Below are positions 12,307 through 30,087 of a stretch of DNA of 64,000 bases, one piece after another. The stretch lies in IMG/VR virus record IMGVR_UViG_3300028559_000005; one strand, 5' to 3'. The notes beneath the pieces were generated by a model. That model saw only the letters and a program-made list of their open reading frames with translations. It was not told where the DNA came from and did no database searches. Every line of letters starts with the position of its first letter. Positions within the stretch are counted from its first letter, which is position 1. The position numbers and the translations under genes were made by a program. The DNA is from a virus (taxonomy: Duplodnaviria > Heunggongvirae > Uroviricota > Caudoviricetes).

Positions 12307-12312
12307 ATTGTT

Positions 12313-12387: not shown

Positions 12388-12394
12388 TATTAAC

Positions 12395-14755: not shown

Positions 14756-14761
14756 AATATT

Positions 14762-16160: not shown

Positions 16161-16505
16161 CTTGCGTTACCCTTGCAGGCGCTTGAGCCACTAATTCTTT
16201 CCACAACATCCAGCGTCATTGTTACAACCACCGGTCTTATCAGTGATCGGATCCTCACGGACCTGAATCAGGCTTGCTTAAACGAACTATCTCTAGCGGA
16301 GTTATGTAGGCATACCTCCTTTGGCTGTGTCACCACAGTTATTCTTCATAAACCAGCAAGCTAGCTTATAGGACGTTAAACCGCCCTTGAATCTTATTAT
16401 AACACTGACTGCTGAACTAGTCAACAATCAATGTTACCAAATTTTTATATCCACATACACTGTGCAGGAATCAAACCCGCCGACCAAGCCATAGGCCTAG
16501 CAACT

Positions 16506-16589
16506 TGGTGCCCCAGGTCGGACTCGAACCGACACGCCTTTCGGCACTGGCTTCTAAGACCAGCGTGGCTGCCATTACACCACCGGGGC
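16506..16589 (-). tRNA. tRNA-Leu (anticodon TAG), type II
   Basis: GCCCCGGTGGTGTAATGG... Anticodon loop CTTAGAA. Variable arm GTGCCGAAAGGCGTGT. T-arm CGG-TTCGAGT-CCG. Encoded CCA. Confidence 0.7.
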
Positions 16590-16597
16590 AAATTTCT

Positions 16598-16672
16598 TGG
16601 TGGTCATGGTTGGTATCGATCCAACCTCCTCGCCTTATGAGGGCGGTGCGCATCCATCTACGCCACATGACC
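16598..16672 (-). tRNA. tRNA-Met (anticodon CAT), elongator-like
   Basis: Acceptor GGTCATG/CATGACC. Anticodon loop CTCATAA. T-loop ATCGATA-like. Encoded CCA. Confidence 0.6.
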
Positions 16673-16852
16673 AATAAATACTTGTGTGAGACGCTATCAA
16701 AATCTAACACCACAGGGCTTGAATTTCTATCTAAGCCTAAGTGATCGCGGTGTTTGCTACATCATTGTTTACGATGTGTTTAATGCCCAAGCTCAAATGC
16801 GTTATTTTACCAACGTGAATCTAGCTTTGCGTTTTATAAACAATCTTTAATT

Positions 16853-16929
16853 TGGGGTGTCTGATGGGGATCGAACCCACGCATATCGGAATCACAACCC
16901 GAGGCCTTACCACTTGGCGACAAACACCA
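16853..16929 (-). tRNA. tRNA-His (anticodon GTG) with the extra 5' G at position -1
   Basis: G-GTGTTTG acceptor. Anticodon arm TCGGG-TTGTGAT-TCCGA. T-arm GTGGG-TTCGATC-CCCAT. Encoded CCA. Confidence 0.65.
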
Positions 16930-16933
16930 TAAA

Positions 16934-17019
16934 CCATATAGAAACACACTCTGCATTTGAAATGCCGACTCCTTTTGCCAAGGTTGTAAACATCGCATTG
17001 CCAATGTGTTTTTATATGG
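16934..17019. repeat. hairpin element copy 1 (terminal inverted repeat CCATATAGAAACACAC ... GTGTTTTTATATGG)
   Basis: A 14-16-bp terminal stem encloses about 55 nt. A second copy with the same termini but a different interior is 240 bp away. Confidence 0.6.
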
Positions 17020-17172
17020 AGAGTCAAGCCAACTTGCCTTTCGTGCGCCTTACTAAGCAAATTATTGATGAACGTTGGGACCCGAACCCTTGCCTCATCT
17101 AGTCTCGCCGCTTATCTTGTCTTACTGCTACAATCCTTTTCGAAGGGATGTTTTCTTTTCGGATGCGACTTA

Positions 17173-17255
17173 CCATATAGAAACACACTAGTCGGAAACG
17201 ACTTAGAGACCTACTTGCCCACAGTCACGAAGGCTTCTAATATGTTTTTATATGG
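17173..17255. repeat. hairpin element copy 2 (same terminal inverted repeat)
   Basis: ccatatagaaacacac...tgtttttatatgg. Its end overlaps the ATG of plus-strand ORF 17252..17914. Confidence 0.6.
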
Positions 17256-17914
17256 TTAAAAATATTTTTAATCTGATAAATAACTATATGATAATACAAA
17301 ACTTTCTTAAAAGTCAATTCTATAAAAACAAATCACCTAACTTGATTAAGCTAGGATTTAACTATGATAATAGTGCCGAGACTGAATTTTTAAAAATTCA
17401 GTCTATGCTATATACTGAATATCATATTAAATGCGAATCTATGCTAACACTTATGAAACAATTTAGCATACCTAGTTCAAGAACTATGGACATTATTTTT
17501 AGACTGTTTGATATCGAGGCACGATCATTTTCAGAAAGTCAATCAAATGCAATAACAACTAATAGAGTTGTTATGCCAAGTAATACTAGATTCAAACATA
17601 TTTTCCATACTGCTTGGTTTGGAGAAATATTTTGTCTAAGATCATCATACGAAGAAGATTATGCCAAACTCCTCGATCAATCGCAAACAAAATATTTTGT
17701 AGAACACTTACGAATAAAATATTTTAACTCTAATCAGCAACGCTACAGAATAGCAATACCTGATTTTTATCTACCCGAAACTAACACTATCGTAGAAGTT
17801 AAATCTACTTACTGGTTAGACGAAACTGAAATGCGTGATAAGAAAGAAGCATATACCGCACTTGGATATAAATTCATTCTCAATCTAGAACATCGGTTAT
17901 TAGAAAATTGGTAG
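17252..17914 (+). CDS. hypothetical protein (220 aa), possible mobile nuclease
   Basis: Very AT-rich, opposite strand, inside the tRNA array. Weak PD-(D/E)xK-like IVEVKSTYW near the C-terminus. Confidence 0.35.
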   Translation: MVKNIFNLINNYMIIQNFLKSQFYKNKSPNLIKLGFNYDNSAETEFLKIQSMLYTEYHIKCESMLTLMKQFSIPSSRTMDIIFRLFDIEARSFSESQSNAITTNRVVMPSNTRFKHIFHTAWFGEIFCLRSSYEEDYAKLLDQSQTKYFVEHLRIKYFNSNQQRYRIAIPDFYLPETNTIVEVKSTYWLDETEMRDKKEAYTALGYKFILNLEHRLLENW

Positions 17915-17985
17915 GACCACTCGGATTCGAACCGAGAGCTTACACCTTAAAAGGGTGATGTTTTAACCGTTAAACTATGATCCCA
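17910..17985 (-). tRNA. tRNA-Lys (anticodon TTT)
   Basis: GGGATCATAGTTTAACGG... Anticodon arm CACCC-TTTTAAG-GGTG. T-arm CTCGG-TTCGAAT-CCGAG. Encoded CCA. Confidence 0.65.
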
Positions 17986-17988
17986 TAT

Positions 17989-18066
17989 TGGTCCCACACC
18001 ACGGGAATGATCCGTGTTCTTTCGGTTAAGAGCCGAGTGCATCACCTTAATGCTTGTGAGGGTTAG
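17989..18066 (-). tRNA. degenerate tRNA-like element (possible anticodon CTT), likely a pseudo-tRNA
   Basis: Acceptor CCCTCAC/GTGTGGG-A-CCA pairs at 6 of 7 positions. D stem GCAT/ATGC. The T-loop ATCATTC is non-canonical. The anticodon stem is imperfect. Confidence 0.3.
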
Positions 18067-18210
18067 TTGTATTAAATTGATTTAATGTGCCAACCCTAGA
18101 CCAATACGGGATCTAGAGCGACACTAGCGTTTTGCACGTTTCATGTCATTACCTCTTTGTGTTTAAGTTTATATTATACAACCTTTTACAGTAGTTGTCA
18201 ACTGTTTTTT

Positions 18211-18285
18211 TGGTTGCCACGGACAATTTCGAAATGTCGACTTATCGCTTATCAAGCGATTACTCTACCTCTGAGTTACGCGGCA
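18211..18285 (-). tRNA. tRNA-Ile (anticodon GAT)
   Basis: Acceptor TGCCGCG/CGTGGCA. Anticodon arm ATCGC-TTGATAA-GCGAT. Encoded CCA. Confidence 0.65.
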
Positions 18286-18290
18286 ATATT

Positions 18291-18368
18291 TGGCACCACC
18301 TGAGAGATTCGAACTCCCAACCCCTGCGTTCGTAGCACAGTGCTCTGATCCAATTGAGCTAAAGCGGT
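18291..18368 (-). tRNA. tRNA-Arg (anticodon ACG)
   Basis: Strong similarity to E. coli tRNA-Arg(ACG): TAGCTCAATTGGATCAGAGC, anticodon loop CTACGAA, T-arm GGGAG-TTCGAAT-CTCTC. Encoded CCA. Confidence 0.7.
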
Positions 18369-18444
18369 AAAGAAACAGTCCAGAGGCTCTCTAAATCTAA
18401 TAGAGCAAACACTCAGTCAAAGTGAGTGACGCATGGACATGACT

Positions 18445-18523
18445 TGGTTGCGGGGGGAGGATTCGCACCTCCGATCTCCAGCTTATGAGACTGGCGGGGA
18501 CGACTAGACTCCCCTACCCCGCG
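18445..18523 (-). tRNA. initiator tRNA-fMet (anticodon CAT)
   Basis: CGCGGGG...CCCCGCAACCA acceptor with the hallmark C1xA72 mismatch, as in E. coli tRNAfMet. Anticodon loop CTCATAA. Confidence 0.65.
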
Positions 18524-18529
18524 ATAACT

Positions 18530-18603
18530 TGGTGCCCCATGAGAGAATCGAACTCCCGCCAACGGATTACAAAACCGTCATAATGCCATTATACTAATGG
18601 GGC
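18530..18603 (-). tRNA. tRNA-Thr (anticodon TGT)
   Basis: GCCCCATTAGTATAATGG... Anticodon arm ACGGT-TTTGTAA-TCCGT. T-arm GGGAG-TTCGATT-CTCTC. Encoded CCA. Confidence 0.65.
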
Positions 18604-18608
18604 TTGTT

Positions 18609-18687
18609 TGGCTCCGCATCTGGGTGACGATCCCAGCTAACCATGGATTAACAGTCCAGCCCATGCACCACGCTCGGGTTCTGCGGA
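18609..18687 (-). tRNA. tRNA-like, probable tRNA-Asn (anticodon GTT), with atypical D and T loops
   Basis: Acceptor TCCGCAG/ATGCGGA-G-CCA. Anticodon loop CTGTTAA. The T-loop ATCGTCA is non-canonical. Confidence 0.4.
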
Positions 18688-18983
18688 ATAGTATTTTATA
18701 TATCTCTTGAGTGGTGATACAGAAAATTTCAGTCACTGTGCTGACATCAACTATATCTCCATATTGAATTTGTAAGTTGTTCCACCACATTATAGGAACC
18801 ATTCACCCGAATTAACAAGCTCGAGCGGGATTCGGTACGTTACTTGGGATTCATCCAGCATGTCCACCGTTTGGAACTAACTCCCTTTCGAGGGCCGGGG
18901 ATTCGAACCCCTTACCTTTTACTATATTGGTCCTTCGAAGTAACCTTTATAGCGTGACTTCACTTGCTAACACTTACAAAACT

Positions 18984-19059
18984 TGGTACACCCTGTTGGA
19001 ATTGAACCAACTTCCACGGCTCTTCAGGCCGCCGCTATGACCACATCAGCTAAAGGTGC
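18984..19059 (-). tRNA. tRNA with anticodon GAA (second Phe-like copy)
   Basis: Acceptor GCACCTT/AGGGTGT-A-CCA. Anticodon arm GCGGC-CTGAAGA-GCCGT. T-arm GTTGG-TTCAATT-CCAAC. Confidence 0.5.
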
Positions 19060-19066
19060 ATTATAT

Positions 19067-19156
19067 TGGCGGAACGACTGAGACTCGAACTCAGAAGCCC
19101 ACTTTCGTGAGCCGACAGATTAGCAATCTGCTCCGATACCATTACGGGACCGTTCC
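19067..19156 (-). tRNA. tRNA-Ser (anticodon GCT), type II
   Basis: 90 nt. 3-bp D stem. Anticodon arm GCAGA-TTGCTAA-TCTGT. Long variable arm. T-arm TCTGAGTTCGAGTCTCAG. Encoded CCA. Confidence 0.65.
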
Positions 19157-19161
19157 TTAAT

Positions 19162-19238
19162 TGGTCTGCGCTGTAGGATTCGAACCTACGACCCCTTGGT
19201 TCCAGGCCAAGAACTCTACCAGACTGAGCTAAACACAG
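19162..19238 (-). tRNA. tRNA, anticodon ambiguous (TGG or CTG; loop CCTGGAA lacks U33)
   Basis: Acceptor CTGTGTT/AGCGCAG-A-CCA. D arm GCTCAGTCTGGTAGAGT. T-arm GTAGG-TTCGAAT-CCTAC. Confidence 0.45.
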
Positions 19239-19246
19239 ATTAAACT

Positions 19247-19320
19247 TGGAGCGGGATATCAGAATCGAACTGATGACGGAAGATTGGAAATCTACAGTTT
19301 TACCATTAAACTAATCCCGC
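19247..19320 (-). tRNA. tRNA-Gly (anticodon TCC)
   Basis: GCGGGAT...ATCCCGC-T-CCA acceptor. Anticodon loop TTTCCAA. Resembles E. coli tRNA-Gly(UCC). Confidence 0.65.
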
Positions 19321-19327
19321 ATAAACT

Positions 19328-19402
19328 TGGTGGACCGTAAGAGAATCGAACTCTTACCTGAGACGTGCAAAGCCCCTGTGCTACCATTATCACTAACAGC
19401 CC
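19328..19402 (-). tRNA. tRNA-Ala (anticodon TGC)
   Basis: Acceptor GGGCTGT with G3:U70. Anticodon arm GGGGC-TTTGCAC-GTCTC. T-loop TTCGATT. Encoded CCA. Confidence 0.6.
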
Positions 19403-19683
19403 ATTATTGAAACACATTTGAACCTTTCTTCAGTGCTGTGGACACTATCTCCCATTCCAAGAGGGCGTTAGGTATGTGCTTCAATAATGGTGCTGGTTAC
19501 TTTCTCCAGCGTACACTAACGGGGTACAGTCTTATTCATCCGGACGCCAGGCAGGAACAACCCTTGCCATAACCGTTTGCGACTAACGGACCTAAGGTGG
19601 TTTTGGCGGTCTTAGGGGGTAACGATCCCCACTCTTACGGCGTGACAAGCCGTCGTGCGTCCATGAACACTTTAAGACCAAAT

Positions 19684-19768
19684 TGGTGGAGAATACTGGG
19701 ATCGAACCAGTCATGACCTAAGTCGGAGGATTTACAGTCCCCTGCCACACCATTGCGGCGGATTCTCC
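19684..19768 (-). tRNA. tRNA-Tyr (anticodon GTA), type II
   Basis: Acceptor GGAGAAT/ATTCTCC. Anticodon arm GGGGA-CTGTAAA-TCCTC. Long variable arm. T-arm ACTGG-TTCGATC-CCAGT. Encoded CCA. Confidence 0.65.
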
Positions 19769-19850
19769 ATGTACTAATGACAGGACGCGGCTCCGTAGGC
19801 CCTTCGTTTAAGAGTACGCATGGACTCGACTGCGACTCTCCTATAAAACT

Positions 19851-19925
19851 TGGTAGAGCATAGCGGAATCGAACCGCTCTTAGTGGACTGAAAACCCACT
19901 GTCCTAACCGATAGACGAATGCTCC
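19851..19925 (-). tRNA. tRNA-Glu (anticodon TTC)
   Basis: Acceptor GGAGCAT/ATGCTCT. Anticodon arm GTGGG-TTTTCAG-TCCAC. T-arm GAGCGGTTCGATTCCGCT. Encoded CCA. Confidence 0.6.
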
Positions 19926-20257
19926 ACTATATGAAAACAAACAAGGAACCATTGTGCATCTTCGTCTACCCTATGCAACGTCTACATAGGGCCTGCACGG
20001 TCATCACTGCCTACATTCTCCGCCGCTACTCCGAACTCCCCGGCACTAAATCCGGATCAACGTCCTGCTTCATGAACTCTGACTATTGAGCGTGGGCGGC
20101 CCCACGTTGCTCGCACAAAGTTCCTAACGGTGTAGGTAACCTTATTTGTTTACATATAGTGCCCGGGTCTGACCCGAGTACACTATACAAAAAATTAACT
20201 TTTTAAGGAACATACAAAGTAGTCTCTATCAACTGTCTTTGTTTCTAACTAGTCTCT

Positions 20258-20286
20258 AGTATAACACCTAGTGCGATACTGGTCAA
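20258..20286 (-). promoter_or_regulatory. sigma70-type promoter, copy 1 of a tandem pair, firing into the tRNA array
   Basis: Minus strand reads TTGACC-(17 nt)-TATACT. It sits within the 48-bp direct repeat 20248-20295. Confidence 0.5.
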
Positions 20287-20352
20287 CTTGTTTTGCAAAA
20301 CCCTACAACTTGGAAGGACTTTGCAACTCTTGTTGCTTTCTGACTAGTCTCT

Positions 20353-20381
20353 AGTATAACACCTAGTGCGATACTGGTCAA
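20353..20381 (-). promoter_or_regulatory. sigma70-type promoter, copy 2 of the tandem pair
   Basis: Identical TTGACC-N17-TATACT inside the second copy of the direct repeat (20343-20390). Confidence 0.5.
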
Positions 20382-20426
20382 CTTGTTTTGTAATGCCCTT
20401 TCAATATAAAGGGTCTTTGTTGTTTG

Positions 20427-20466
20427 GCAGACGTGCCAGGGCTCGAACCTAGAACGAATAATGGCA
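20427..20466 (-). pseudogene. tRNA 3'-half remnant (T-arm, acceptor 3' strand, CCA)
   Basis: RNA-sense CTAGG-TTCGAGC-CCTGG-CACGTCT-G-CCA directly 3' of tRNA-Gln. No 5' half. Confidence 0.4.
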
Positions 20467-20534
20467 GAGGGTAATGGAATCGAACCATTAATAGCGGAAT
20501 CAAAATCCGCTGTTATACCATTTAACTAACCCCC
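20462..20534 (-). tRNA. tRNA-Gln (anticodon TTG)
   Basis: Acceptor GGGGGTT/ACCCTCT-G-CCA. Anticodon arm GCGGA-TTTTGAT-TCCGC. T-arm AATGG-TTCGATT-CCATT. Confidence 0.6.
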
Positions 20535-20558
20535 AACAGAACAATTATCAAAATGCCA

Positions 20559-21323
20559 TCAGAGCATTTTTTTTCTTGGATGAAATACCACTGGCTCGAA
20601 ATCAAATACGCCAGGGCAAAATTCACATTGATCAATGTGTTGATGTCTTGTATTAACAAAGTCCACTAACTGTTGCTCAGTACAGTCAGCATTTAATGGT
20701 TGATACTGTGACAACAACTGTTCTTGCCTTGAATCCATGATTACTGATTGTTGTGTACGAAATTCTGGCAACACTGCCATCACAGGACACTTATACAGTT
20801 GTCCTTTGAATATAGTGTGACTATGCCGCATGGTACAGGCATTAAATGCAGTTATTGGATCACTGTTATGCACAGCAAATACATCACCTTGCGGGATTAT
20901 TGCAGCCGGGGTAAATTCTGTATTGTCAATGAGGTTACCCCATTGTCGTTCCAATGCAGGACGCATCTCTGGTCGATGTAAACTTACACCCCATCCCACA
21001 CGGTATTTACTATAAGAGACAAGACTTTTTGCTACCTTTGTGTTGGTACCATTACTCTGTATCATGATTGTGGTTTCTGGCCACAATCTACGAAGATTTA
21101 CTATCCAAGTTTCTAGTTCAGGATGCAAGCTGGGCTCACCACCAATGATAGTAATCATTGGTGCATTAATCCTCTGACTCCAGGCAGTTACAGCATCAGC
21201 TGAATCTTCCCAATAGTAGTGACCACGAAAATCGTGATCATTGAATCTATTACAGTTAGTACAGGCTAAATTGCATTGATTAGTGATGTAAAACTCTATC
21301 ACCGAGTTTAAGAATACGGGCAT
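20559..21323 (-). CDS. radical SAM domain protein (254 aa)
   Basis: CNLACTNC CxxxCxxC cluster at the N-terminus. IIGGEPSLHPE GGE motif. C-terminal Cys pairs (CEFCPG). Confidence 0.6.
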   Translation of the reverse strand: MPVFLNSVIEFYITNQCNLACTNCNRFNDHDFRGHYYWEDSADAVTAWSQRINAPMITIIGGEPSLHPELETWIVNLRRLWPETTIMIQSNGTNTKVAKSLVSYSKYRVGWGVSLHRPEMRPALERQWGNLIDNTEFTPAAIIPQGDVFAVHNSDPITAFNACTMRHSHTIFKGQLYKCPVMAVLPEFRTQQSVIMDSRQEQLLSQYQPLNADCTEQQLVDFVNTRHQHIDQCEFCPGVFDFEPVVFHPRKKML

Positions 21324-21830: not shown

Positions 21831-22037
21831 TTATTTTGACTCTGCTGCTTCTAACGCATCAGCAGCTTCTTCCAGCAGATCAGCAATGCGGTCAGGCGCA
21901 CCTTCCGCGACACTTTTACGTGAACTGATCTGCCGACGAATCTCAGCTCGCTTGCGCAGACGAAAAATCAAACTTTGTTCACTCACAGGCAAATGGCTTT
22001 CATCTTTCATGCTGCCTCCAGATAGTTGCGTACCCAC
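21831..22037 (-). CDS. hypothetical small protein (68 aa)
   Basis: ORF only. Overlaps the downstream ligase-like gene by 31 nt. Confidence 0.3.
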   Translation of the reverse strand: MGTQLSGGSMKDESHLPVSEQSLIFRLRKRAEIRRQISSRKSVAEGAPDRIADLLEEAADALEAAESK

Positions 22038-22909
22038 GTCAGTCGTTCTTGTTCAGTCTTTGCAGTATATGCTTCTATATCTGCTTGGATGGCAGCAAGC
22101 AAAGGATAATATTCTTCTTCAATTTGCTGCTTGAAATCCTCACGCATCAACTTGTCAGTGTTGGGATTACGAGCAACCCACTTCGAAGTCAAGTAGTAAG
22201 GACTCTTGATTTTGGCACTCACGCCATCTTGGGTATAGAATACATAACCTTCGTGACGACATTCTTTAGTCATCTGTTTGAGTTCCCCTAGACTAACTCT
22301 ATATACTTCGGGAACATAGCAGTTGAATACAGTTCCCATTATTTTGAGAACTTCAGGGCTGTGTCCAATACGACTACACCATTTGTTGTCACGAAGACCT
22401 AGTACATACATACCAGCCTTTTCAGGACAGATGTGCGGATCGTCAGGATGAACACACTCAAACATTACAGTTAGTCCTTGCATGTCGGCACTGGCAAACG
22501 CCAACTGCCAATCAGCCCATGACATGTGAGTTAGCATCATTTCCTTGGCCAGGCCAACAAATGGGCTGTCGGTACTACCGGTAGTAGAAACTAATACATC
22601 ACCGTTAACCCACGTACAAGCAACCATAAAGCCGTTAACTTTACGGTATGCGATTACTTCAGTGTTATCTGACAGCACAGGTGATTCTTTTTCAATACCA
22701 TAGTTGTAGATCTTTGTAAATGGATATGTAACTAGGTTAAAATCCTTGTCTACAATAGATCCACGACATTCGGCAATATATTTGTTCCACAGGTTCTTAT
22801 AAAATACAGTTTTTTTGTATTTCAAAACAAAGATACCGTCACCAGCTGGTTTCATCGAAACCAACTTAGGATTGTCGGCTACATATTGCTTCAATTCATC
22901 TTTAAACAT
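22007..22909 (-). CDS. putative RNA ligase / nucleotidyltransferase-superfamily protein
   Basis: Candidate KxNG motif I (AYRKVNGFMV) and later acidic/His segments. Sits within the RNA-repair neighbourhood. Assignment is tentative. Confidence 0.35.
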   Translation of the reverse strand: MFKDELKQYVADNPKLVSMKPAGDGIFVLKYKKTVFYKNLWNKYIAECRGSIVDKDFNLVTYPFTKIYNYGIEKESPVLSDNTEVIAYRKVNGFMVACTWVNGDVLVSTTGSTDSPFVGLAKEMMLTHMSWADWQLAFASADMQGLTVMFECVHPDDPHICPEKAGMYVLGLRDNKWCSRIGHSPEVLKIMGTVFNCYVPEVYRVSLGELKQMTKECRHEGYVFYTQDGVSAKIKSPYYLTSKWVARNPNTDKLMREDFKQQIEEEYYPLLAAIQADIEAYTAKTEQERLTWVRNYLEAA

Positions 22910-22910
22910 T

Positions 22911-23114
22911 TTATCTACCTACAGTAATCATTCGAACCCGTAATGCGTTCAGATTAGTTTGGATATCAGTCAACTCAGTCAATGCTTTGGTGTAATGACC
23001 ATTGGGGTGTTTGTCGTGTCCTAGTTTGCGATCCACACCCATGGCCATCTTTGTCGCGGCAATAGCTGTGTCAACTGCTTCAATACGTGCTTCAAGTTTT
23101 TCTAAATCTGTCAT
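22911..23114 (-). CDS. hypothetical small protein (67 aa)
   Basis: Preceded by the conserved GGAGTTGAAGAATG initiation motif. Confidence 0.4.
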   Translation of the reverse strand: MTDLEKLEARIEAVDTAIAATKMAMGVDRKLGHDKHPNGHYTKALTELTDIQTNLNALRVRMITVGR

Positions 23115-23144
23115 TCTTCAACTCCAAAATGTTTTCTGATCGTA

Positions 23145-23447
23145 TTAAAGTTTATCATAATAATCTCTAATAGCACTTAGGCCAGTCTTGGCTGGTCCGC
23201 CTTTTTTAGTCTCACTAAGTGATAATGCACTTAATACATCTTCCTCACTGAGGTTGTACTTTTTCATGATCTCCTGAGATTCAGTTCGTGCTTGAAAAAT
23301 CAAAATCTCTCGTGCCTGCGCTTTTTCAATTTGAACAGTCAGGGCCGCTGCCTTTTCTGTAGAAGCCTTGATGTTTGCCTTAAGGACTTCAAGAGCAGTG
23401 TTCATCTCTCTTAAAGATGGTATGGAATTCATGTTAGTATTGTTCAT
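23145..23447 (-). CDS. hypothetical small protein (100 aa)
   Basis: Preceded by the conserved initiation motif. Coiled-coil-like. Confidence 0.4.
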   Translation of the reverse strand: MNNTNMNSIPSLREMNTALEVLKANIKASTEKAAALTVQIEKAQAREILIFQARTESQEIMKKYNLSEEDVLSALSLSETKKGGPAKTGLSAIRDYYDKL

Positions 23448-23479
23448 TCTTCAACTCCGAAATCTAATTCATTTTGTTC

Positions 23480-23639
23480 ATTAGCCTTGGAATCCAGTGA
23501 CTTGTTCAAATAGTTCCAGAAAGTCTAGGTCACTGAGTGTGGCAATCTCGTCCGGGCTGATGCTAAACTCTGTGGCCAGAGTGGTGTCATCTACGGAGAA
23601 CAGGATACGCTCAGTCATCATTTCACGCAGTGTCATTCT
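23480..23639 (-). CDS. hypothetical small acidic protein (about 52 aa)
   Basis: Hand-translated MTLREMMTERILFSVDDTT...GFQG. Starts at the ATGA junction with the upstream paralog. Below the ORF-track cutoff. Confidence 0.3.
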
Positions 23640-23854
23640 TCAACTCCAAAATGTTGTTTTAACGCATTAACATATTGACCATGTATCTCACCATCATCAA
23701 TATTCCAATATACTCGGGCACATTCCCGCACAATCAACTCGGCGAACTTTTCCAAATCTCTCTCACTAAAATACACAGCAGACGGCATATTCCAATCGCC
23801 ATGCTCCCAATGTGCTCCAGCCTTGACAGCAAGTTTACCAATTCGTTCGTTCAT
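23633..23854 (-). CDS. small paralog family member P1 (MNERIGKLA...KFAELIVRECA...HFGVEE)
   Basis: Shares N-terminal, central and C-terminal signatures with seven other ORFs in this window. Confidence 0.55.
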   Translation of the reverse strand: MNERIGKLAVKAGAHWEHGDWNMPSAVYFSERDLEKFAELIVRECARVYWNIDDGEIHGQYVNALKQHFGVEE

Positions 23855-23855
23855 A

Positions 23856-24362
23856 CTATGCTCCTACAATGCTGCGGGCTTGCGCCATCAATGTGGCATC
23901 ACCGCGGGTTAATACTTCTAACAACATACGCTTTTCTTCCAAATACACTTTTGCGAATGCAGGGTCGTGTGCCATGATGCTGCGGCTGTTGGCAATTAAG
24001 TCGGCCAACTTCACTGTAGCTGCCGCTGCAGGTGCCATTGCAGTATGTTCACGGTCGATGGCTTTGCGAACAGCCCTGTTGCCTTGTTCTGGAGTACTGA
24101 CATCAGTCAACCACCCAACTAACTCAGCAACTTCGTTGCCAAACTCTGCTTGGATATCCACAATGGTCACACCAGTATCTTCCACGGTGTCGTGCAACCA
24201 AGCAGCAGCCAACATCTCATCAGTATGAGGCACAGTGGCAACAATACTGGCAACTTCAGCAGGATGCACAATGTAAGATTCAAATGTGTACTTTCGTACT
24301 TGTTTAACCGCAGCATGAGCAGCGGTAGCAAATACTCGGGCTCGCTCTACTATGGTCATCAC
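23856..24362 (-). CDS. HD-domain phosphohydrolase, RelA/SpoT-type (p)ppGpp hydrolase-like
   Basis: HD motif [14 protein letters not shown] matches the SpoT/Mesh1 hydrolase signature (LHDxxEDT). 168 aa single-domain protein. Confidence 0.55.
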
Positions 24363-24388
24363 GTGCTCCTTTGTTGGTCTATGTGTGT

Positions 24389-24417
24389 ATTATAACAAAA
24401 CGAGCAATACCGGTCAA
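24389..24417 (-). promoter_or_regulatory. sigma70 consensus promoter (TTGACC-N17-TATAAT) for the HD hydrolase gene
   Basis: Minus strand: TTGACCGGTATTGCTCGTTTTGTTATAATA, followed by AAAGGAG and ATG. Confidence 0.6.
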
Positions 24418-24427
24418 CCAAAATTAT

Positions 24428-24976
24428 TCACACATGATGACCTTTGATTGCGCCCTTTAGACCAATTCGAATAGCTTCGTCCATAGAGATAGCAATCATA
24501 CCAGTTGCGTCCATGCCCACATCCACACAACGATATCGTTCCATTCCGCTGATGCCACCGTGCAGGTGTCCATGCAAGTGAACCGCACCGCGATGCATTT
24601 GATCCCATTCTGCAATAGGATAATGAAACATCACAACTTTGGTTTCGTTGAACTGCACATCCAGATACTTGTGGATTTCTGTGAAACAGTTGCGAAACGC
24701 AGAATCTTGTAAAGTCTTGCGGTCGTGGTTGCCTTCGACCAAGATCTTATATCCATTGCACCTCTGCATGTATTCTGCTGCTTTTTGAGCAGGCAAGAAT
24801 GCCACATCGCCTAGAATGTATACAGTGTCTTCAGGAGCAATCAAGTCGTTCCATTCTTTAACCATTTGCTCGTTCATATAGTTTACGTCATTGCGAAACC
24901 TTGCACGTGACTGGGGACAAAAACTCATGATATTTTTATGCCCGAAATGGAGATCACTGGTTATCCAATTTTTCAT
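24428..24976 (-). CDS. calcineurin-like metallophosphoesterase
   Basis: SDLHFGH and VEGNHD metallophosphatase motifs. The start is taken at the internal MKNW (ATGA overlap with the upstream ORF). The ORF track extends it to 25081. Confidence 0.6.
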   Translation of the reverse strand: MKNWITSDLHFGHKNIMSFCPQSRARFRNDVNYMNEQMVKEWNDLIAPEDTVYILGDVAFLPAQKAAEYMQRCNGYKILVEGNHDRKTLQDSAFRNCFTEIHKYLDVQFNETKVVMFHYPIAEWDQMHRGAVHLHGHLHGGISGMERYRCVDVGMDATGMIAISMDEAIRIGLKGAIKGHHV

Positions 24977-24977
24977 A

Positions 24978-25229
24978 TTATTTCCTTTTGACCTGGCCGA
25001 TACGACTGGATTTGTTCCAGGTGTAATCCACACCGTCGGGGGTCTTGCCGTTGACCACAGCGTCCACACCCGGCTTGCCAACTTGATTTAAATCTTCCGC
25101 TACCATGGTAACAAAGACCATGCCCAACTTGCGAAATTCTTCGGTATAACGAAGTGCTTCAGTCAAAGTGTCAGCATTGTGTGCGTGACTCCAATCTGTC
25201 ACCGGATCTGTGTAGTAGATTTTAAACAT
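24978..25229 (-). CDS. hypothetical protein (83 aa)
   Basis: ORF downstream of a promoter-like element at 25236-25265. Confidence 0.4.
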   Translation of the reverse strand: MFKIYYTDPVTDWSHAHNADTLTEALRYTEEFRKLGMVFVTMVAEDLNQVGKPGVDAVVNGKTPDGVDYTWNKSSRIGQVKRK

Positions 25230-25235
25230 AGTGCT

Positions 25236-25265
25236 ATTATATAGTACGGATGATATTCAGGTCAA
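25236..25265 (-). promoter_or_regulatory. sigma70-like promoter (TTGACC-N18-TATAAT)
   Basis: Minus strand: TTGACCTGAATATCATCCGTACTATATAAT. Confidence 0.45.
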
Positions 25266-25274
25266 TAGGAGTTG

Positions 25275-25658
25275 TTATATAAATCCATCATCGGGATAGG
25301 GTTGTACCGTCCACCCTATGGCAAACAAGTCTTGACGGATCTCATCAGTAACAAAACTCTCACCCACATAAGAATCATTATTGCTGTTCCGGTTGCTGGG
25401 TGCTATCGTGCCCGAGCAGTACCAATCCATGTAGTCGCCTTGATTGCGTATATCGGCAATGATTCCACCAGCAGATCTCCAGGTACACGACCAGTAGAGA
25501 TCAGCAATTCTGGGCCATACATCGTTTTTTTGGAATAAATTATTGCATATGGCTGCATAGAGATTTTGAGCGTAAGTGTCGCTGTCAATTATTTTTTGTG
25601 CCATCCATTTGCTGGCCACAATGTCTTGTTCAAGATCATTGACAGGATCGTCTTTCAT
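25275..25658 (-). CDS. hypothetical protein (127 aa)
   Basis: ORF only. Confidence 0.4.
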   Translation of the reverse strand: MKDDPVNDLEQDIVASKWMAQKIIDSDTYAQNLYAAICNNLFQKNDVWPRIADLYWSCTWRSAGGIIADIRNQGDYMDWYCSGTIAPSNRNSNNDSYVGESFVTDEIRQDLFAIGWTVQPYPDDGFI

Positions 25659-25858
25659 TGCAAAGTACGTGGCGGGTTAAGAAGATCGGATTGCAAGTGT
25701 TCTGGGAGATCTGCAAAATCAACTTTTCTGCTTTGCGCAGCAATTTCTTCAGAAGTCATGGATTCAAACGTTTCTTCAATTTCTGCTTTCAAAGCATCCA
25801 GTTCTTCTTGGGTGCCATCAAAATTATCAAATGCTCCAGGTGCAAATTGTACTTTCAT
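25655..25858 (-). CDS. hypothetical acidic small protein (67 aa)
   Basis: ORF only. Stop/start coupled with the downstream ORF. Confidence 0.35.
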   Translation of the reverse strand: MKVQFAPGAFDNFDGTQEELDALKAEIEETFESMTSEEIAAQSRKVDFADLPEHLQSDLLNPPRTLQ

Positions 25859-25892
25859 AGTGTGTCCTTGAAAAAAATGGTAGGATGTTTTG

Positions 25893-25965
25893 TTGGACCC
25901 TCCGGACTCGAACCGGAACCTTACAAATTATGAGTTTGCGGCACTAACCATTATGCTAGAGTCCA
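25893..25965 (-). tRNA. tRNA with anticodon CAT (third CAT species; possibly Ile2 or elongator Met), CCA not encoded
   Basis: Acceptor TGGACTC/GGGTCCA-A. Anticodon arm GCAAA-CTCATAA-TTTGT. T-arm TCCGG-TTCGAGT-CCGGA. Confidence 0.5.
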
Positions 25966-26050
25966 ACAAAACACCCTTTCCTAAGTGTTTATTATAGTTG
26001 ATATTTATTTAACCGTCAAGTGCTTTTTACCACTAGCCAGGATATTATTC

Positions 26051-27022
26051 TTATTTTGTTGTAAAATTGGGAAGCAAAAATTCTTGTACTCTTGGTAACG
26101 TAAACAGTATGGGAGGCAGTTGATCCACTGGAAATCGTTTCAAAATTGATTCTGGTTCCCAGGACAAACTCTCACCTTCTTCAAATTTGAATCCTTGACT
26201 TCTATGCCGTTGATGCCCTTGATTTGGTGCATGTGCATATGATCGGCTTTTGATTTGATTTCTAGCATCGCCGCCCATCCAACTAAAATGCCATCCAAAG
26301 TTATCAAATATTTCTCCTCCTATTGTGGGAGTAATTATCTGTGCCGGAACATGATACTTGCATCTAATGCGATGCGGAGTTGTTTGGCTTACTATGGATT
26401 TTTTACAAATACTCATGGCTGTACGCCAAACAAATGGCCACCCTGCACGAGCATATGGTCGTAAGTCAGCTCTACCATACAGATTGATCAATGGCAACTT
26501 CACAACCGTATCAGGATTATTACGGGCCACATTCAATGCAAATTCAATATGGTTGGGATTGATAATTTCATCAATATCGCTCATCAAAAACCAATCGGTA
26601 TCATCAAATTTGTAAAGTACCTTCTGCAATGCATTACGTTGAATGCGTTCTCGTGCCACCGCTTGTATAGATATAATATCTGCACGATCCTCGGGAAACT
26701 GTGCATCAAAGTCATGTTGTTCCAACTGCAAATCAACGTCATCGGCTATACGAACTTCAATCACAGTGATTTTTTCTACAGGGAGCCCCAACTCAGCAAT
26801 CAAGTTTTTTAACTCAAATTGCCTAGGCAACCCGCTGAAAGTTTTATTGGCTTCTGAGATCACAAAATGATCCACGTGATCTTTCAATAGGTTGATCCTT
26901 AATTCTAACAACTCACGTTCGTTGAAGTAGGGGAAATAATCAATAAGTCGATCTGCCACGATTACCTTTCTTGTTGTTTTAAGATCCACATAGTCAAGTC
27001 CGGTCCACCAATCAACACACAT
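26051..27022 (-). CDS. glycosyltransferase, GT17-like (beta-1,4-GlcNAc-transferase family fold)
   Basis: LIDYFPYFNERELLELRINLLKDHVDHFVISEANKTFSG matches the Glyco_transf_17 N-terminal signature (CFLFNNExDLLExRL...VDxFVIVES). Confidence 0.55.
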   Translation of the reverse strand: MCVDWWTGLDYVDLKTTRKVIVADRLIDYFPYFNERELLELRINLLKDHVDHFVISEANKTFSGLPRQFELKNLIAELGLPVEKITVIEVRIADDVDLQLEQHDFDAQFPEDRADIISIQAVARERIQRNALQKVLYKFDDTDWFLMSDIDEIINPNHIEFALNVARNNPDTVVKLPLINLYGRADLRPYARAGWPFVWRTAMSICKKSIVSQTTPHRIRCKYHVPAQIITPTIGGEIFDNFGWHFSWMGGDARNQIKSRSYAHAPNQGHQRHRSQGFKFEEGESLSWEPESILKRFPVDQLPPILFTLPRVQEFLLPNFTTK

Positions 27023-27267
27023 TGATTAGTGTACTTGAGGTAGCCTGATTCCCTACGATACCCTGTTGTCATTAGTGGGATCACACGCACCTGTTTGGGT
27101 GTGATCTTGACCACTTTGCCCACCATCAAAGAATTCTGATGCGTGAATGCAACTGCATCCCCTTCAACCACGTCACGACCCAAAAGATCGTTATGTAATT
27201 CAACTTCAACTTGCATTCCAAACTTCCTTGAACCCTTCTTCTTCAGTTGGATCTTCCCAACTTGCAA
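26962..27267 (-). CDS. hypothetical protein (101 aa)
   Basis: ORF only. Confidence 0.35.
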   Translation of the reverse strand: MQVGKIQLKKKGSRKFGMQVEVELHNDLLGRDVVEGDAVAFTHQNSLMVGKVVKITPKQVRVIPLMTTGYRRESGYLKYTNQCVLIGGPDLTMWILKQQER

Positions 27268-27667
27268 TCATACTGGCAACAACATGATCCGGAATGTCTT
27301 TTCCAGGTCGGCTCATCAATCGACGCATAAGTTCTGTATGTTCCGGTGTCTTAAACACCACAGCAATATGCTCGTAGTCGGGCAACATGTTGAATTTCTT
27401 CTTGCGGCTTTTGACTGTAGTGCTGGTTTGATCCCAAATGATATCATGCCCGTGCTCTCGAGCATGAACAACCGCTTTGACCATTAGATCTACCGCTGTG
27501 GGCATATAGTCAACAAACACTTCAGAATAAGTTTTACCTTGTTCCTTGGCGTATGCTTCTACAAAATTATCTGTGCTAACCACAGTTAGGCCCAATGCCC
27601 AATCTTGGCTCTTAATCCAGGTGCTTTTGCCCGAACCTGGCACTCCCACTAATACGTAAACTTTTGG
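27206..27667 (-). CDS. P-loop polynucleotide kinase-like protein (T4 Pnk kinase-domain-like)
   Basis: VLVGVPGSGKSTWIK is nearly identical to the T4 Pnk Walker A (GCPGSGKSTWAR). No phosphatase domain. The start is trimmed to the internal MPKVYVL. Confidence 0.6.
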   Translation of the reverse strand, partial: PKVYVLVGVPGSGKSTWIKSQDWALGLTVVSTDNFVEAYAKEQGKTYSEVFVDYMPTAVDLMVKAVVHAREHGHDIIWDQTSTTVKSRKKKFNMLPDYEHIAVVFKTPEHTELMRRLMSRPGKDIPDHVVASMIASWEDPTEEEGFKEVWNAS

Positions 27668-28170
27668 CATTATTTTCCTACAACTTGATATTGGCTCAGT
27701 GGGTAGCGTTTTTGTAACCATTCCACTAGACCTGGCTCCCAGGGCAATTTAATTGATCCGTTACGATTGATAATGTATTTCATTTCTCAGGTACTTCATT
27801 TAAGATATCTTCGCACATCTTCAATCCGCGTTCCCATCGAGCCATCATTTCACGGAAGGCGGCAATGTTAGCACGATTGTGGAACAAGTCTCCACTCCAA
27901 ACAGCAGCATCAATCTCGTCCATTGCACCATCTTCAAGACGTTTGTAGTGATCAATCATTGTTCATGTCCTAGTGTTGCTGGACTGTGATCCAGTCGATT
28001 CTGATTTGTATCTGTATAAAAGAACGCATCAGAATCAGTTATTGTAACACACAAATCACTATGGGTCAAATCATAGTCCACAAAGTCCGTGCCATTGTAC
28101 ACACGAAAATAATAGTTACCATCAAAGGAACAAATCAAATGTCCTTCTACACCGTTAGCCGACTTTGGTT

Positions 28171-28425
28171 TCATAGTGCAACTCCGAAATGTTTTACAAT
28201 CTCTATCACACAATCCCTGCGAAACACATCCTCAATTTGATCTCTATAATCTTTATATCCAGGAGAAAGGTTTTCTACAATACCAACACATTCCGCCACC
28301 ATCAACTCGGCGAACTTTCGTGCCTTGACAACACTTTCGTGATCGGGTGTTCTAGCACCCGAAGGCAGAGTGTCCCATTGAATAAGATCGGCCTGTTTAG
28401 CAAGTTCAAAAATTCGTTCGTTCAT
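28171..28425 (-). CDS. small paralog family member P2
   Basis: MNERIFELAK...ARKFAELMVAECVG...KHFGVAL. A divergent copy located 5 kb from the main cluster. Confidence 0.45.
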   Translation of the reverse strand: MNERIFELAKQADLIQWDTLPSGARTPDHESVVKARKFAELMVAECVGIVENLSPGYKDYRDQIEDVFRRDCVIEIVKHFGVAL

Positions 28426-28429
28426 TATA

Positions 28430-28660
28430 TTACCCACTTGTTTTGATTACTTCTAGTATTGTGATTTCGAGTACCCTGTGATTCCGTAAACTCATAAATG
28501 TCACAAACTTGGCTTCGACATCACTTTGACTGTATTGTTTATGATATGGCATTGTTGCAACATCCTCATACGGTTCTTCATTTTCATCCAACGCAATGAA
28601 ACTTAACTTTACTATACCATGCTCGGGTTCTTTGAATATGTCAATTAGCTTATTAAACAT
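28430..28660 (-). CDS. hypothetical small protein (76 aa)
   Basis: ORF only. Confidence 0.3.
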   Translation of the reverse strand: MFNKLIDIFKEPEHGIVKLSFIALDENEEPYEDVATMPYHKQYSQSDVEAKFVTFMSLRNHRVLEITILEVIKTSG

Positions 28661-28695
28661 TTATCTACCTACTGCAATTATTCAAATTTGTTTGT

Positions 28696-29055
28696 TCATT
28701 CTTTGTGCCAATTACCTTGCAAACAATGCAAGAACTCATGTCCAGCTGTACGCATATCCACCTTCTCGGGCAAGATCATCACGCAACGGTCCTTTTGATA
28801 CCATGTGCATGCCAGTGCTCCGTTAGGGAATCCATTGAAGCCGAACTTGCGACTTTGAGCATCACACACGGCTTGTATCTCGGAAGCCTTGGCATACCGT
28901 ATCTCCACTTGTGTGTTGTTGGTGAGATTCTGTTTCATATCAAACAACCGCCAGGGGGAGTTGTCAAACTCCCATGATCCATGGTTGTCGTTTTGGTCCT
29001 GGCCGCAGCCTGCAACCATAGTCAATAACACACATACAAAAAGACTTTTCAACAT
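28696..29055 (-). CDS. small lipoprotein with HExxH metallopeptidase-like motif
   Basis: Lipobox LLTMVAGC after an N-terminal signal. HEFLHC motif near the C-terminus. 119 aa. Confidence 0.45.
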   Translation of the reverse strand: MLKSLFVCVLLTMVAGCGQDQNDNHGSWEFDNSPWRLFDMKQNLTNNTQVEIRYAKASEIQAVCDAQSRKFGFNGFPNGALACTWYQKDRCVMILPEKVDMRTAGHEFLHCLQGNWHKE

Positions 29056-29058
29056 AAA

Positions 29059-30087
29059 TTATTTCTCGCCCAACAGGTACTTGTTAGAAATAGCTTTGAA
29101 AGACATCCCGCCACAAACTTCCTTGAACACAATACCTTCACGCTGTACTGTAGAATTCAATATTGACATGTCCTCTGCCCATTGCAGAATTTCTTCTACA
29201 GAGCCAACACCAAGGTCTTTATCGACAGAGATAAAGGGAACATGCAGTAGACCCAATGATTTAACCATGGCACGACGGAATGCTGGATCAACATAAGCAC
29301 CACTATGAATATTGTACACATCAAACACACGAAACTCTGGTTGAGACAGCTTGTAGATGTTGTTTTGAATTCCAGGACCAATCAACTCACCTTGAATTGC
29401 AACGTTGTCGTAATTGTTGTTACGCAGCTTTTCTTCAATTTGCTCTCTGCGAGCAACTTGCCAGAATGTGTTATCAGCAGTTTCTTTCAAGTCCAAGTTA
29501 CGTGAGCAAACACCAAATTCTCCATCAATCAGGTACACAGTCATTGAAGAGCCTTCTAGCTTTTCGGTAATCTCAAATTGAGTACCAGCTTGTGCAGCCG
29601 CAAGGATTTCTTCAACAAGATTTTGCGCACGTTCCTGATCAGTCTTGGGAATCAACGATGGGAAGTTACCTTTAGCCAGGCCAGCCAGCTGAGCATTCAT
29701 TGGGCGTTCCCACTTGACAATACCAAGTGTTTCAGACACGTCATCACCTTCCACAAAAGAATTAGTTTGTGGAATAGCAAAGTCAAGATTCAGCAGCAAG
29801 CCTTGTGACAGTTGTCCACGTAGTTTTACAGTGCGTAGACGTTCTCCGCGGATGCCTTCAAACTCGCGAGGCTCTTTGCCTTTGGATAGGAATGGTGCAA
29901 GCTCTGTAGGGATCCATGAGTCAATTTCGCAATAGACCGCACGATCGCCAACTGAGAATTCACCTTTCTTGACCACCACCTTCCACCCGCCAATGGTAGC
30001 GCATTCAATAGCATCTGCACCCTCGATAGGGGTTAGTGCATCAATCTGACGAATAGTTGCCATTTTACGCATTTTATTTCCTTCCAA
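29059..30087 (-). CDS. putative RNA ligase (Rnl1-like nucleotidyltransferase)
   Basis: ITEKLEGSSMTVYLIDGEF resembles the T4 Rnl1 motif I (TKEDGSL). 342 aa. Assignment is tentative. Confidence 0.4.
   Translation of the reverse strand: MEGNKMRKMATIRQIDALTPIEGADAIECATIGGWKVVVKKGEFSVGDRAVYCEIDSWIPTELAPFLSKGKEPREFEGIRGERLRTVKLRGQLSQGLLLNLDFAIPQTNSFVEGDDVSETLGIVKWERPMNAQLAGLAKGNFPSLIPKTDQERAQNLVEEILAAAQAGTQFEITEKLEGSSMTVYLIDGEFGVCSRNLDLKETADNTFWQVARREQIEEKLRNNNYDNVAIQGELIGPGIQNNIYKLSQPEFRVFDVYNIHSGAYVDPAFRRAMVKSLGLLHVPFISVDKDLGVGSVEEILQWAEDMSILNSTVQREGIVFKEVCGGMSFKAISNKYLLGEK

Follow-up and report, generated by a model that had tools for sequence, protein, structure and literature searches.

A candidate RNA end-healing and sealing cassette beside the tRNA array of an uncultured jumbo phage

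Introduction

Phage repair of host-cleaved tRNA is textbook counter-defence, and to our knowledge it is understood biochemically almost only from the polynucleotide kinase (Pnk) and the RNA ligase Rnl1 of T4. Do other phages carry a repair set of a different build? This question is raised by a stretch of 64,000 nucleotides from a virus of the Caudoviricetes (IMG/VR record IMGVR_UViG_3300028559_000005; the whole stretch is referred to as the window), in which a first-pass annotation had picked out five genes at 22007-30087 next to a tRNA array: two ligase candidates, a P-loop kinase, a calcineurin-type phosphoesterase and an HD-domain protein. Together they had been proposed to form a split healing-and-sealing system that counters host anticodon nucleases. 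Sets of kinase, phosphoesterase and RNA ligase for repair have already been described in jumbo phages, and parts of the set in the window are unusual. Here, we find that four of the five genes belong to a conserved cassette. We think it probable, rather than assured, that the region is a loosened copy of a conserved phage cassette for RNA end healing and sealing, accompanied by an independent RNA ligase of the Rnl5 family. Judging by its sequences, the cassette would most likely mend RNA, probably tRNA, that host defences have cut or blocked.

Results

Four of the five genes form a conserved cassette

All five genes were found on the minus strand, which carries every gene between 20 and 32 kb of the window, at or within a few codons of the positions given in the first-pass annotation and in the enzyme classes named there:

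22007..22909, minus strand: Rnl1-type ATP-dependent RNA ligase, short form, 300 aa (Pfam, PHROG, profile against T4 Rnl1)
23856..24359, minus strand: RelA/SpoT-type HD hydrolase resembling a small alarmone hydrolase (SAH), single-domain, 167 aa (Pfam, NCBIfam, PDB alignments)
24428..24976, minus strand: calcineurin-superfamily metallophosphoesterase (MPE) of the aq_1665 / phrog_547 type, 182 aa (PHROG, PDB 1xm7, motif alignment)
27206..27670, minus strand: stand-alone P-loop kinase (AAA_33) of the Pnk clade, 154 aa, candidate RNA 5'-OH kinase (Pfam, NCBIfam, PDB profile, T4 Pnk alignment)
29059..30072, minus strand: nick-sealing RNA ligase of the Rnl5 family (DraRnl/NgrRnl type) with an N-terminal OB domain, 337 aa (TIGR02306, Pfam, 5cot)

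Linkage was examined on viral contigs, in 80 loci whose Rnl1-like proteins are 64-98% identical to that of the window; the other families were mapped onto these loci, and counts were taken over the 69 in which 3 kb or more lies upstream of the Rnl1-like gene. Within 3 kb of this gene, the MPE was present in 66 of the 69 loci, the kinase in 46 and the HD gene in 44. The cassette genes were always co-directional and occurred in 12 different arrangements in the 69 related loci. The commonest of these, kinase-MPE-HD-Rnl1-like (23 loci), often formed a compact block of 2.5 kb, and the same order is found in the window, spread out by DUF7205, a GT17-like glycosyltransferase gene, a tRNA-Met gene and eight small open reading frames (ORFs). 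Wherever the MPE gene directly preceded the Rnl1-like gene, the two overlapped or were separated by at most 1 nt (17/17 loci), and no other gene is linked to the ligase as closely as the MPE. Gaps of at most 30 nt were observed from MPE to HD in 19 of 43 loci and from HD to the Rnl1-like gene in 18 of 45.

One fusion was observed in addition, and a second is implied. P0132 (356 aa), found with the MPE in a search of cluster representatives, is a fusion of MPE and HD_4. Its gene runs at the stop into an Rnl1-like gene, 45% identical to that of the window, with an overlap of 4 nt. Moreover, the N-terminus of phrog_8238 (a profile of 737 positions) matches the kinase and its C-terminus the Rnl1-like ligase, which implies a kinase-ligase fusion family. 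Parts of the cluster are also shared by cultured phages whose neighbourhoods are otherwise different:

Vibrio F88: MPE, Rnl1 and AAA_33, then the HD protein
Salmonella PVP-SE1 and E. coli phiWec191: MPE, Rnl1 and AAA_33
Ralstonia RSP15: tRNA array, AAA_33 abutting Rnl1, MPE
Acidovorax ACP17 and Variovorax V45v66: Rnl1, then an adjacent HD-MPE pair
Pakpunavirus SPA05: MPE and Rnl1, with a weak HD-like match upstream
Otagoviruses REC1 and VCM: HD about 1 kb from Rnl1

The co-location goes beyond chance, because the same four families recur together in relatives and in unrelated phages. In related phages, kinase, MPE, HD protein and Rnl1-like ligase make up a conserved cassette whose genes are often translationally coupled.

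Regarding the genes that separate the kinase from the rest of the cassette in the window, the GT17-like glycosyltransferase is encoded at 26051-27022 (minus strand) and DUF7205 at 26962-27216 (minus strand); neither is found in the compact cassettes of the relatives.

The cassette ligase is a short Rnl1 form with intact catalytic motifs

ORF 22007-22909, which holds the motif AYRKVNGF, was matched by Pfam RNA_lig_T4_1 (PF09511; 43.2 bits, 5.4e-11, cut-off 28.3) and by phrog_562 (4e-49), and it was the sole match when the window was searched with T4 RnlA by tblastn. With the NCBIfam equivalog model TIGR02308 (RnlA) it reached 28.7 bits, far under the cut-off of 242; the predicted protein is a member of the Rnl1 family at the domain level and no RnlA equivalog. 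A phmmer search of PDB with the single sequence gave no match, and a profile of 10 homologues reached T4 Rnl1 (2c5u) at 6.5e-16. In this alignment, K90 of KVNG falls on the motif I lysine (KEDG), E151 on FEF (motif III), E220-G221 on EG (motif IV) and K233/K235 on KIK (motif V), the T4 counterparts of which we take to be K99, E159, E227-G228 and K240/K242. None of these residues varied among the 10 homologues, which reach down to 32% identity. T4 Rnl1 continues into a C-terminal helical domain (about residues 255-374) that is not present here, as the profile alignment stops at T4 residue 252, and the roughly 55 residues past motif V form a different, conserved C-terminal tail. With these motifs, the Rnl1-like protein would be the sealing enzyme of the cassette.

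Homologues of the protein are routinely annotated as 'RNA ligase and tail fiber protein attachment catalyst', and its main role might accordingly be a non-enzymatic one in tail-fibre attachment, as known for T4 gp63, next to unrelated neighbours. We regard this as very improbable: the invariance of all ligase catalytic residues across distant homologues argues for selection on catalysis, and the gene is located among early-type auxiliary genes and tRNAs, not structural genes, and shows translational coupling to a phosphoesterase gene.

The kinase groups with polynucleotide kinases

The ORF of the kinase spans 27206-27721 and contains GVPGSGKSTW; the probable start of translation is 27670 (154 aa), a start shared by about 100 near-identical proteins in the databases. 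Pfam AAA_33 matched at 1.9e-19, the best NCBIfam matches were bacterial Pnkp (3.7e-8), PSTK and PNK-3'Pase, and the match of TIGR04075 fell on the kinase protein only. Comparing a kinase profile to PDB returned Pnkp1 (6e-9), PSTK (3e-7), the CthPnkp kinase (5e-7), T4 Pnk (1e-5) and mammalian PNKP (5e-5), with shikimate kinase weaker by orders of magnitude (4e-3). Adenylate and dNMP kinases, an affiliation that the first-pass annotation had named as one that would speak against its proposal, were missing from the profile matches in PDB, and the order of the NCBIfam matches agrees with a grouping with Pnkp1, PSTK, the CthPnkp kinase, T4 Pnk and PNKP. The near-identity of the Walker A motif to that of T4 Pnk, also pointed out in that annotation, amounts to 9 of 10 residues when aligned to the sequence of the T4 record. 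Furthermore, D34 corresponds to the general base D35 of T4 Pnk and R117/R121 to R122/R126; the P-loop (G9-T17), D34, D80/T82 and R117/R121 are invariant in the clade and were also aligned with the kinase domains of Pnkp1 and CthPnkp. An AlphaFold2 model of the kinase, built from an alignment of 20 sequences with 75-88% identity, had a mean pLDDT of 53 and was unusable.

A fused HAD phosphatase domain (DxDxT, HAD_PNKP) was not found in the 154-aa protein, which consists of the kinase domain only, and the HAD domains of T4 and of Stenotrophomonas phage Yut2 retrieved nothing credible anywhere in the window when used as queries. With no HAD-type Pnk phosphatase detected in the window, another 3' phosphoesterase is needed if kinase and ligase repair breaks that carry a 2',3'-cyclic phosphate on one side and a 5'-OH on the other.

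As a separate observation on a kinase homologue, a related JGI contig, Ga0620987_03249 (L008/L009), carries a direct duplication of ~6.2 kb that contains this homologue together with a GGACT-like gene, a MoxR-type AAA ATPase and a DUF2201 gene. The duplication could reflect a genuine tandem repeat or an error of assembly.

The phosphoesterase is of the aq_1665 type

The MPE was matched by phrog_547 at 2e-51 and by PDB 1xm7 (aq_1665) at 2e-9 as a single sequence and 1e-21 as a profile; the profile also matched GpdQ (6e-4). The sole solved relative, aq_1665, is an uncharacterised Aquifex protein, and a literature search on it gave no functional information. In an alignment of 16 sequences, the motifs DxH, GD, GNHD, H and GHxH were all invariant (D8, H10, D57, N83-H84-D85, H118, H137 and H139). 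The metal ligands of the calcineurin superfamily are thereby all in place, which is a feature at the superfamily level only. The only NCBIfam match was the PdeM model TIGR04123, with 20.6 bits (2.4e-4) at a cut-off of 150.

The first-pass annotation had likened this enzyme to the phosphatase of bacterial Pnkp. No specific relationship of this kind was seen: the MPE profile, compared to all PDB sequences at E<=10, returned no Pnkp or lambda phosphatase, and a Pnkp-like identity was rejected at the family level. As a member of the cassette, the MPE is a candidate 2',3'-cyclic phosphodiesterase or 3'-phosphatase that could stand in for the HAD domain. Stenotrophomonas phage Yut2, which has both the MPE and a kinase-HAD Pnk, is a counter-example to a distribution in which the one would replace the other.

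The HD protein is a RelA/SpoT-type hydrolase

The HD gene, given as 23856-24362 in the first-pass annotation, indeed encodes an HD_4 domain (PF13328; 57.8 bits, 1.4e-15, cut-off 27.2). The protein is of the RelA/SpoT type, resembling SAHs, and the documented activities of this family are not those of classic end healing. TIGR00691 (spoT_relA) matched at 2.5e-21 over the hydrolase part only, with no synthetase domain, and the PDB matches were Rel hydrolase domains (4e-15) and Mesh1 (1e-10). Residues H33, H57-D58, E61-D62 and D121...N125 align with the catalytic set of Rel. The Rel segment 'ADRLHN' reads 'ADLIAN' in the window, and its Arg is replaced by L or I in six cassette-linked HD homologues and in P0132.

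SAHs act as hydrolases of (p)ppGpp/(p)ppApp. They can also take the 3'-pyrophosphate off tRNA CCA ends modified by toxSAS and so make the tRNA chargeable again (bioRxiv 10.1101/2021.04.30.441581), and phage SAHs neutralise all toxSAS toxins tested, the related ones from PVP-SE1 and SSU5 doing so in vivo (PMC7229694). Here, the fusion of HD to MPE beside a ligase suggests that the HD domain acts on RNA 3' ends. The protein is a candidate 3'-(pyro)phosphohydrolase of the cassette. A more far-reaching version, which we put forward tentatively, is that HD acts on RNA 3' ends rather than, or besides, free alarmones and forms with the MPE a two-enzyme unit for 3'-end healing. In that case the cassette would serve tRNA repair in two ways, reversing both anticodon-loop cleavage (by cyclic phosphate removal, 5' phosphorylation and Rnl1 sealing) and the pyrophosphorylation of CCA ends by toxSAS/CapRel.

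The 'nucleotide pyrophosphohydrolase' near the cassette of PVP-SE1 was considered as the experimentally tested SAH and rejected, as it is MazG-like (PRA-PH) and not HD_4.

The second ligase is independent of the cassette

The ORF of the second ligase, 29059-30087 in the first-pass annotation, begins at 30072 (337 aa) in public gene calls. It reached 197.3 bits with TIGR02306 (cut-off 151.15), was matched by the Pfam PHA02142 OB domain (PF21189) and RNA_ligase (PF09414), and was aligned over its full length with the Naegleria RNA ligase 5cot (2.7e-90), KLEGS (motif I) falling on KLDGS. By these matches, ORF 29059-30072 is unambiguously assigned as an Rnl5-family ligase. The family, which occurs in 346 phage records, is reported to seal nicks in duplexes whose 3'-OH strand is RNA. 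Both ligase candidates are RNA ligases with the catalytic lysine properly aligned, to T4 Rnl1 in one case and to 5cot in the other. Of the two-ligase toolkit proposed earlier, the Rnl1-like half stands as linked to the cassette, whereas Rnl5 was close to the Rnl1-like gene in only 1 of the 80 related loci and was rejected as a cassette member on this count. It adjoins the Rnl1-like gene in Variovorax phage V45v66. In the window, Rnl5 is a second, independent RNA ligase upstream of the cassette.

Directly downstream of Rnl5, a 119-aa ORF (28696-29055, minus strand) has a lipoprotein-type signal (MLKSLFVCVLLTMVAGC) and a metalloprotease-like HEFLH motif (HExxH). It had no Pfam, PHROG or NCBIfam match, and its pairing with Rnl5 is kept on other contigs of the same phage.

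The cassette adjoins a large set of tRNA genes

The large neighbouring tRNA set noted in the first-pass annotation is present, and one more tRNA gene lies inside the cluster:

6928-20535, minus strand: tRNA gene array, 28 tRNAs (ARAGORN), directly downstream of the cassette in the direction of transcription
25892-25965, minus strand: tRNA-Met (CAT) gene (ARAGORN; Rfam tRNA 59 bits), between kinase and MPE, inside the cluster

The tRNA-Met gene is preceded by a sigma-70-like promoter match (11/12) at 26019-25991 in a promoter scan. Among related loci that are fully flanked, 18 of 25 have tRNA genes no more than 5 kb from the cassette. The array is a probable substrate pool of the cassette.

The same setting could point to needs of the phage itself. 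The cassette might mature or repair the tRNA, transfer-messenger RNA (tmRNA) and GOLLD transcripts encoded next to it, or it might clean and seal nicks that contain RNA in replication intermediates, the MPE then working as an end nuclease associated with a ligase, much like PdeM. The MPE homologues annotated as 'DNA ligase-associated' in Staphylococcus phage PM34 would fit this, as would the co-resident Rnl5, whose family reportedly seals nicks with an RNA 3'-OH strand, and PdeM as the only NCBIfam match of the MPE; that match, however, is weak, its score being far under the cut-off. We know of no bacterial-type tRNA maturation step that needs a kinase plus a ligase. Since Rnl1- and Pnk-type enzymes moreover reverse host tRNA cleavage in T4 (T4 record annotation), we hold a service to the phage's own transcripts or replication to be quite unlikely.

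Several further features were observed in and around the array. A full-length GOLLD RNA (15503-15966, minus strand; Rfam RF02032, 200.8 bits, gathering score 150) is located within it and has a tRNA-Asn (15831-15904) embedded. A phage tmRNA at 6581-6934 (minus strand; Rfam beta_tmRNA 91.7 bits, permuted tmRNA 94.1 bits) was unreported by ARAGORN, which also missed two tRNA-like genes found with Rfam (7905-7979 and 14683-14755, both minus strand). Conversely, the tRNA-Ile(TAT) that ARAGORN placed at 11944-12035 (minus strand) is unusually long (92 nt) and has no tRNA match in the Rfam gathering list. A near-consensus sigma-70-like promoter, TTGACx-17/18-TATAAT (11/12), recurs on the minus strand at 30883-30855, 30332-30304, 26019-25991, 25265-25236, 24417-24389 and 21778-21750, and precedes several genes of the region, among them the tRNA-Met gene, the orf83-MPE pair and the HD gene. 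Promoter-like sites total 29, only a slight excess over the shuffled expectation of 23.4 +/- 4.5.

The source is an uncultured jumbo phage

The family-B DNA polymerase of the window is 46-49% identical to PolB of the about-0.5-Mb phages Atu_ph07 and Phosso, and metagenomic contigs as long as 256 kb carry proteins identical to those of the window. When the 8-kb region was compared with 50,697 phage records by megablast, no match came up, and a distant blastn search of it retrieved short pieces of the Rnl5 gene and tRNA only. The source is an uncultured jumbo phage without a cultured close relative.

Elsewhere in the window, three radical-SAM enzymes (one of them B12-binding, 641 aa) and a fourth ORF with only a sub-threshold radical-SAM match (41847-42707) are encoded on the minus strand at 20559-21323, 8403-9446, 41847-42707 and 44312-46237. 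Their neighbours include methyltransferase, GTP cyclohydrolase I, MazG-like and sugar-modifying genes, a setting that suggests nucleotide, DNA or RNA modification pathways. A TctC-like periplasmic binding protein (tripartite tricarboxylate transporter receptor) is encoded at 3085-4014 (minus strand).

Discussion

How could the cassette mend RNA? The aq_1665-type MPE, alone or with the RelA/SpoT-type HD protein, would turn the 3' end of a break into a 3'-OH, the Pnk-clade kinase would phosphorylate the 5'-OH, and the Rnl1-type ligase would be adenylated at K90 and then seal the break. The HD protein might additionally, or instead, strip the 3'-pyrophosphate that toxSAS of the CapRel type place on tRNA CCA ends; alternatively, it might hydrolyse (p)ppGpp/(p)ppApp. 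What remains of the split healing-and-sealing system proposed in the first-pass annotation is, in genomic terms, a conserved cassette of kinase, MPE, HD protein and Rnl1-like ligase, often near tRNA genes; what does not remain is a Pnkp-type phosphatase and the membership of Rnl5. Host-cleaved tRNA, including tRNA cut by anticodon nucleases, would be the probable substrate, and the cassette might thereby act in counter-defence.

Several observations weigh against this repair reading. In the window, the cassette genes are 0.07 to 2.2 kb apart, with several predicted promoters between them. T4 Pnk contacts its polynucleotide substrate through Arg38, a residue that aligns with V37 of the kinase in a segment without an invariant Arg across the clade, and P0074, a kinase 81% identical to that of the window, is found in another relative without ligase, MPE or HD within 10 kb. 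The Rnl1 form is short and does not have the C-terminal domain that confers tRNA specificity on T4 Rnl1. The MPE family extends much further than the ligase, into phages of Staphylococcus, Listeria and Bacillus among others: out of 1.8 billion cluster representatives (50% identity), 16017 matched at E<=1e-3, mostly stand-alone proteins of ~180 aa, and in Staphylococcus phage PM34, the sole such locus examined, no ligase is annotated within 6 kb of the MPE. HD homologues stand alone in small temperate phages, which fits a role as free-standing alarmone hydrolase, and they are also alone in phiKZ-like phages. Finally, no characterised member was found for the MPE family, the kinase clade or the short Rnl1 form, and aq_1665 is without known function.

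The stand-alone HD and MPE genes, the kinase located elsewhere and the separate promoter-like sites of the window genes are also what would be expected of co-expressed early auxiliary genes that act separately, the main alternative to repair. The HD protein would then be a plain alarmone hydrolase directed at the stringent response or at (p)ppApp/toxSAS toxicity, the MPE would cleave a different phosphoester (cyclic-nucleotide immune signals, for instance), the kinase would act on a small molecule or protein, and only the two ligases would touch RNA. That phage SAHs neutralise toxSAS toxins on their own (PMC7229694) is in line with this, and the relevant passages of Iyer et al. take the SpoT-type HD proteins of phages to target alarmones and the calcineurin-like orthologues of T5 A1 to be counter-signal phosphodiesterases (PMC7824862). 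We nevertheless consider separate action unlikely, given a linkage that survives at least 12 permutations of gene order with overlapping stop and start codons, an MPE-HD fusion that abuts a ligase, a family of fused kinase and Rnl1 (phrog_8238), the recurrence of the association in phage lineages sharing no flanking genes, and the fact that the nearest characterised relatives of the kinase are all polynucleotide or tRNA kinases.

If RNA repair is indeed the function of the cassette, its build is a different one, with a kinase without phosphatase domain, a separate MPE, a RelA/SpoT-type HD protein and a short Rnl1. Many phages cultured on Escherichia, Salmonella, Pseudomonas, Vibrio, Ralstonia and Acidovorax have parts of the cassette, and the cassette itself is abundant in environmental jumbo phages. 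Such a function would give a role to one of the commonest unannotated families of phage phosphoesterases (the phrog_547 MPE) and to a widespread family of cassette-linked SAHs, tying small alarmone hydrolases to RNA end repair, and it would indicate which tRNA-targeting defences (anticodon nucleases, toxSAS) these phages withstand. Should the proposed activities fail, the region would be an ordinary set of auxiliary genes.

Comparison with known systems

In the relevant passages of their survey, Iyer et al. (2021, Viruses 13:63, PMC7824862) report that ATP-grasp RNA ligases of jumbo phages go with polynucleotide kinases, with phosphoesterases (calcineurin-like or HD-like in a few phages) and with many tRNAs; the four-gene operon, the MPE-HD fusion and the spread in smaller phages are not described in those passages. 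A Pakpunavirus genome paper of 2025 mentions one phage with a kinase without 3'-phosphatase domain, two RNA ligases, an SAH and 17 tRNAs (PMC12846349). The open-access literature yielded no paper that links an SAH-type HD protein or an aq_1665-type MPE to an RNA-ligase operon, or that describes the fusion. The Rnl5 of the window is an ordinary phage member of its family, sharing the N-terminal OB domain and KLxGS with NgrRnl and the Deinococcus radiodurans RNA ligase, with no notable difference.

With bacterial Pnkp systems (C. thermocellum Pnkp/Hen1; Capnocytophaga Pnkp1-Rnl-Hen1), the cassette shares the logic of a Pnk-clade kinase, a binuclear metallophosphoesterase and an ATP-dependent ligase, and Pnkp1 and the CthPnkp kinase domain are the best solved relatives of its kinase. 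In contrast to these systems, in which one polypeptide holds the activities, the cassette encodes separate proteins; its ligase is of the Rnl1 type and not a Pnkp ligase module, and its MPE is without detectable specific similarity to the Pnkp phosphatase module. No Hen1 methyltransferase turned up in the window, though no search aimed at Hen1 was made.

In function the cassette also resembles the pair of T4 Pnk (pseT) and Rnl1 (rnlA), which reverses PrrC damage. Its kinase shares the T4-Pnk-like P-loop, the general-base Asp and the RxxxR lid, and its Rnl1-type ligase shares motifs I, III, IV and V. The T4 genes (134002-137464) are loosely clustered too, rnlA and pseT being co-directional and 1.4 kb apart with only alc and pseT.1-3 between them. 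Unlike in T4, the cassette kinase has no fused HAD domain, 3' healing would presumably fall to a separate aq_1665-type MPE and a RelA/SpoT-type HD protein, and the ligase is without the C-terminal domain of T4 RnlA and stays far below its equivalog cut-off. The HD protein in turn is, like the known SAHs (Mesh1, ATfaRel and the phage proteins PaSpo and PbcSpo), a RelA/SpoT hydrolase of one domain, in which the HDxxED motif and the residues of the Mn site are intact. What sets it apart from them is that its gene is part of a cassette of RNA ligase, kinase and MPE and, in one relative, is fused there.

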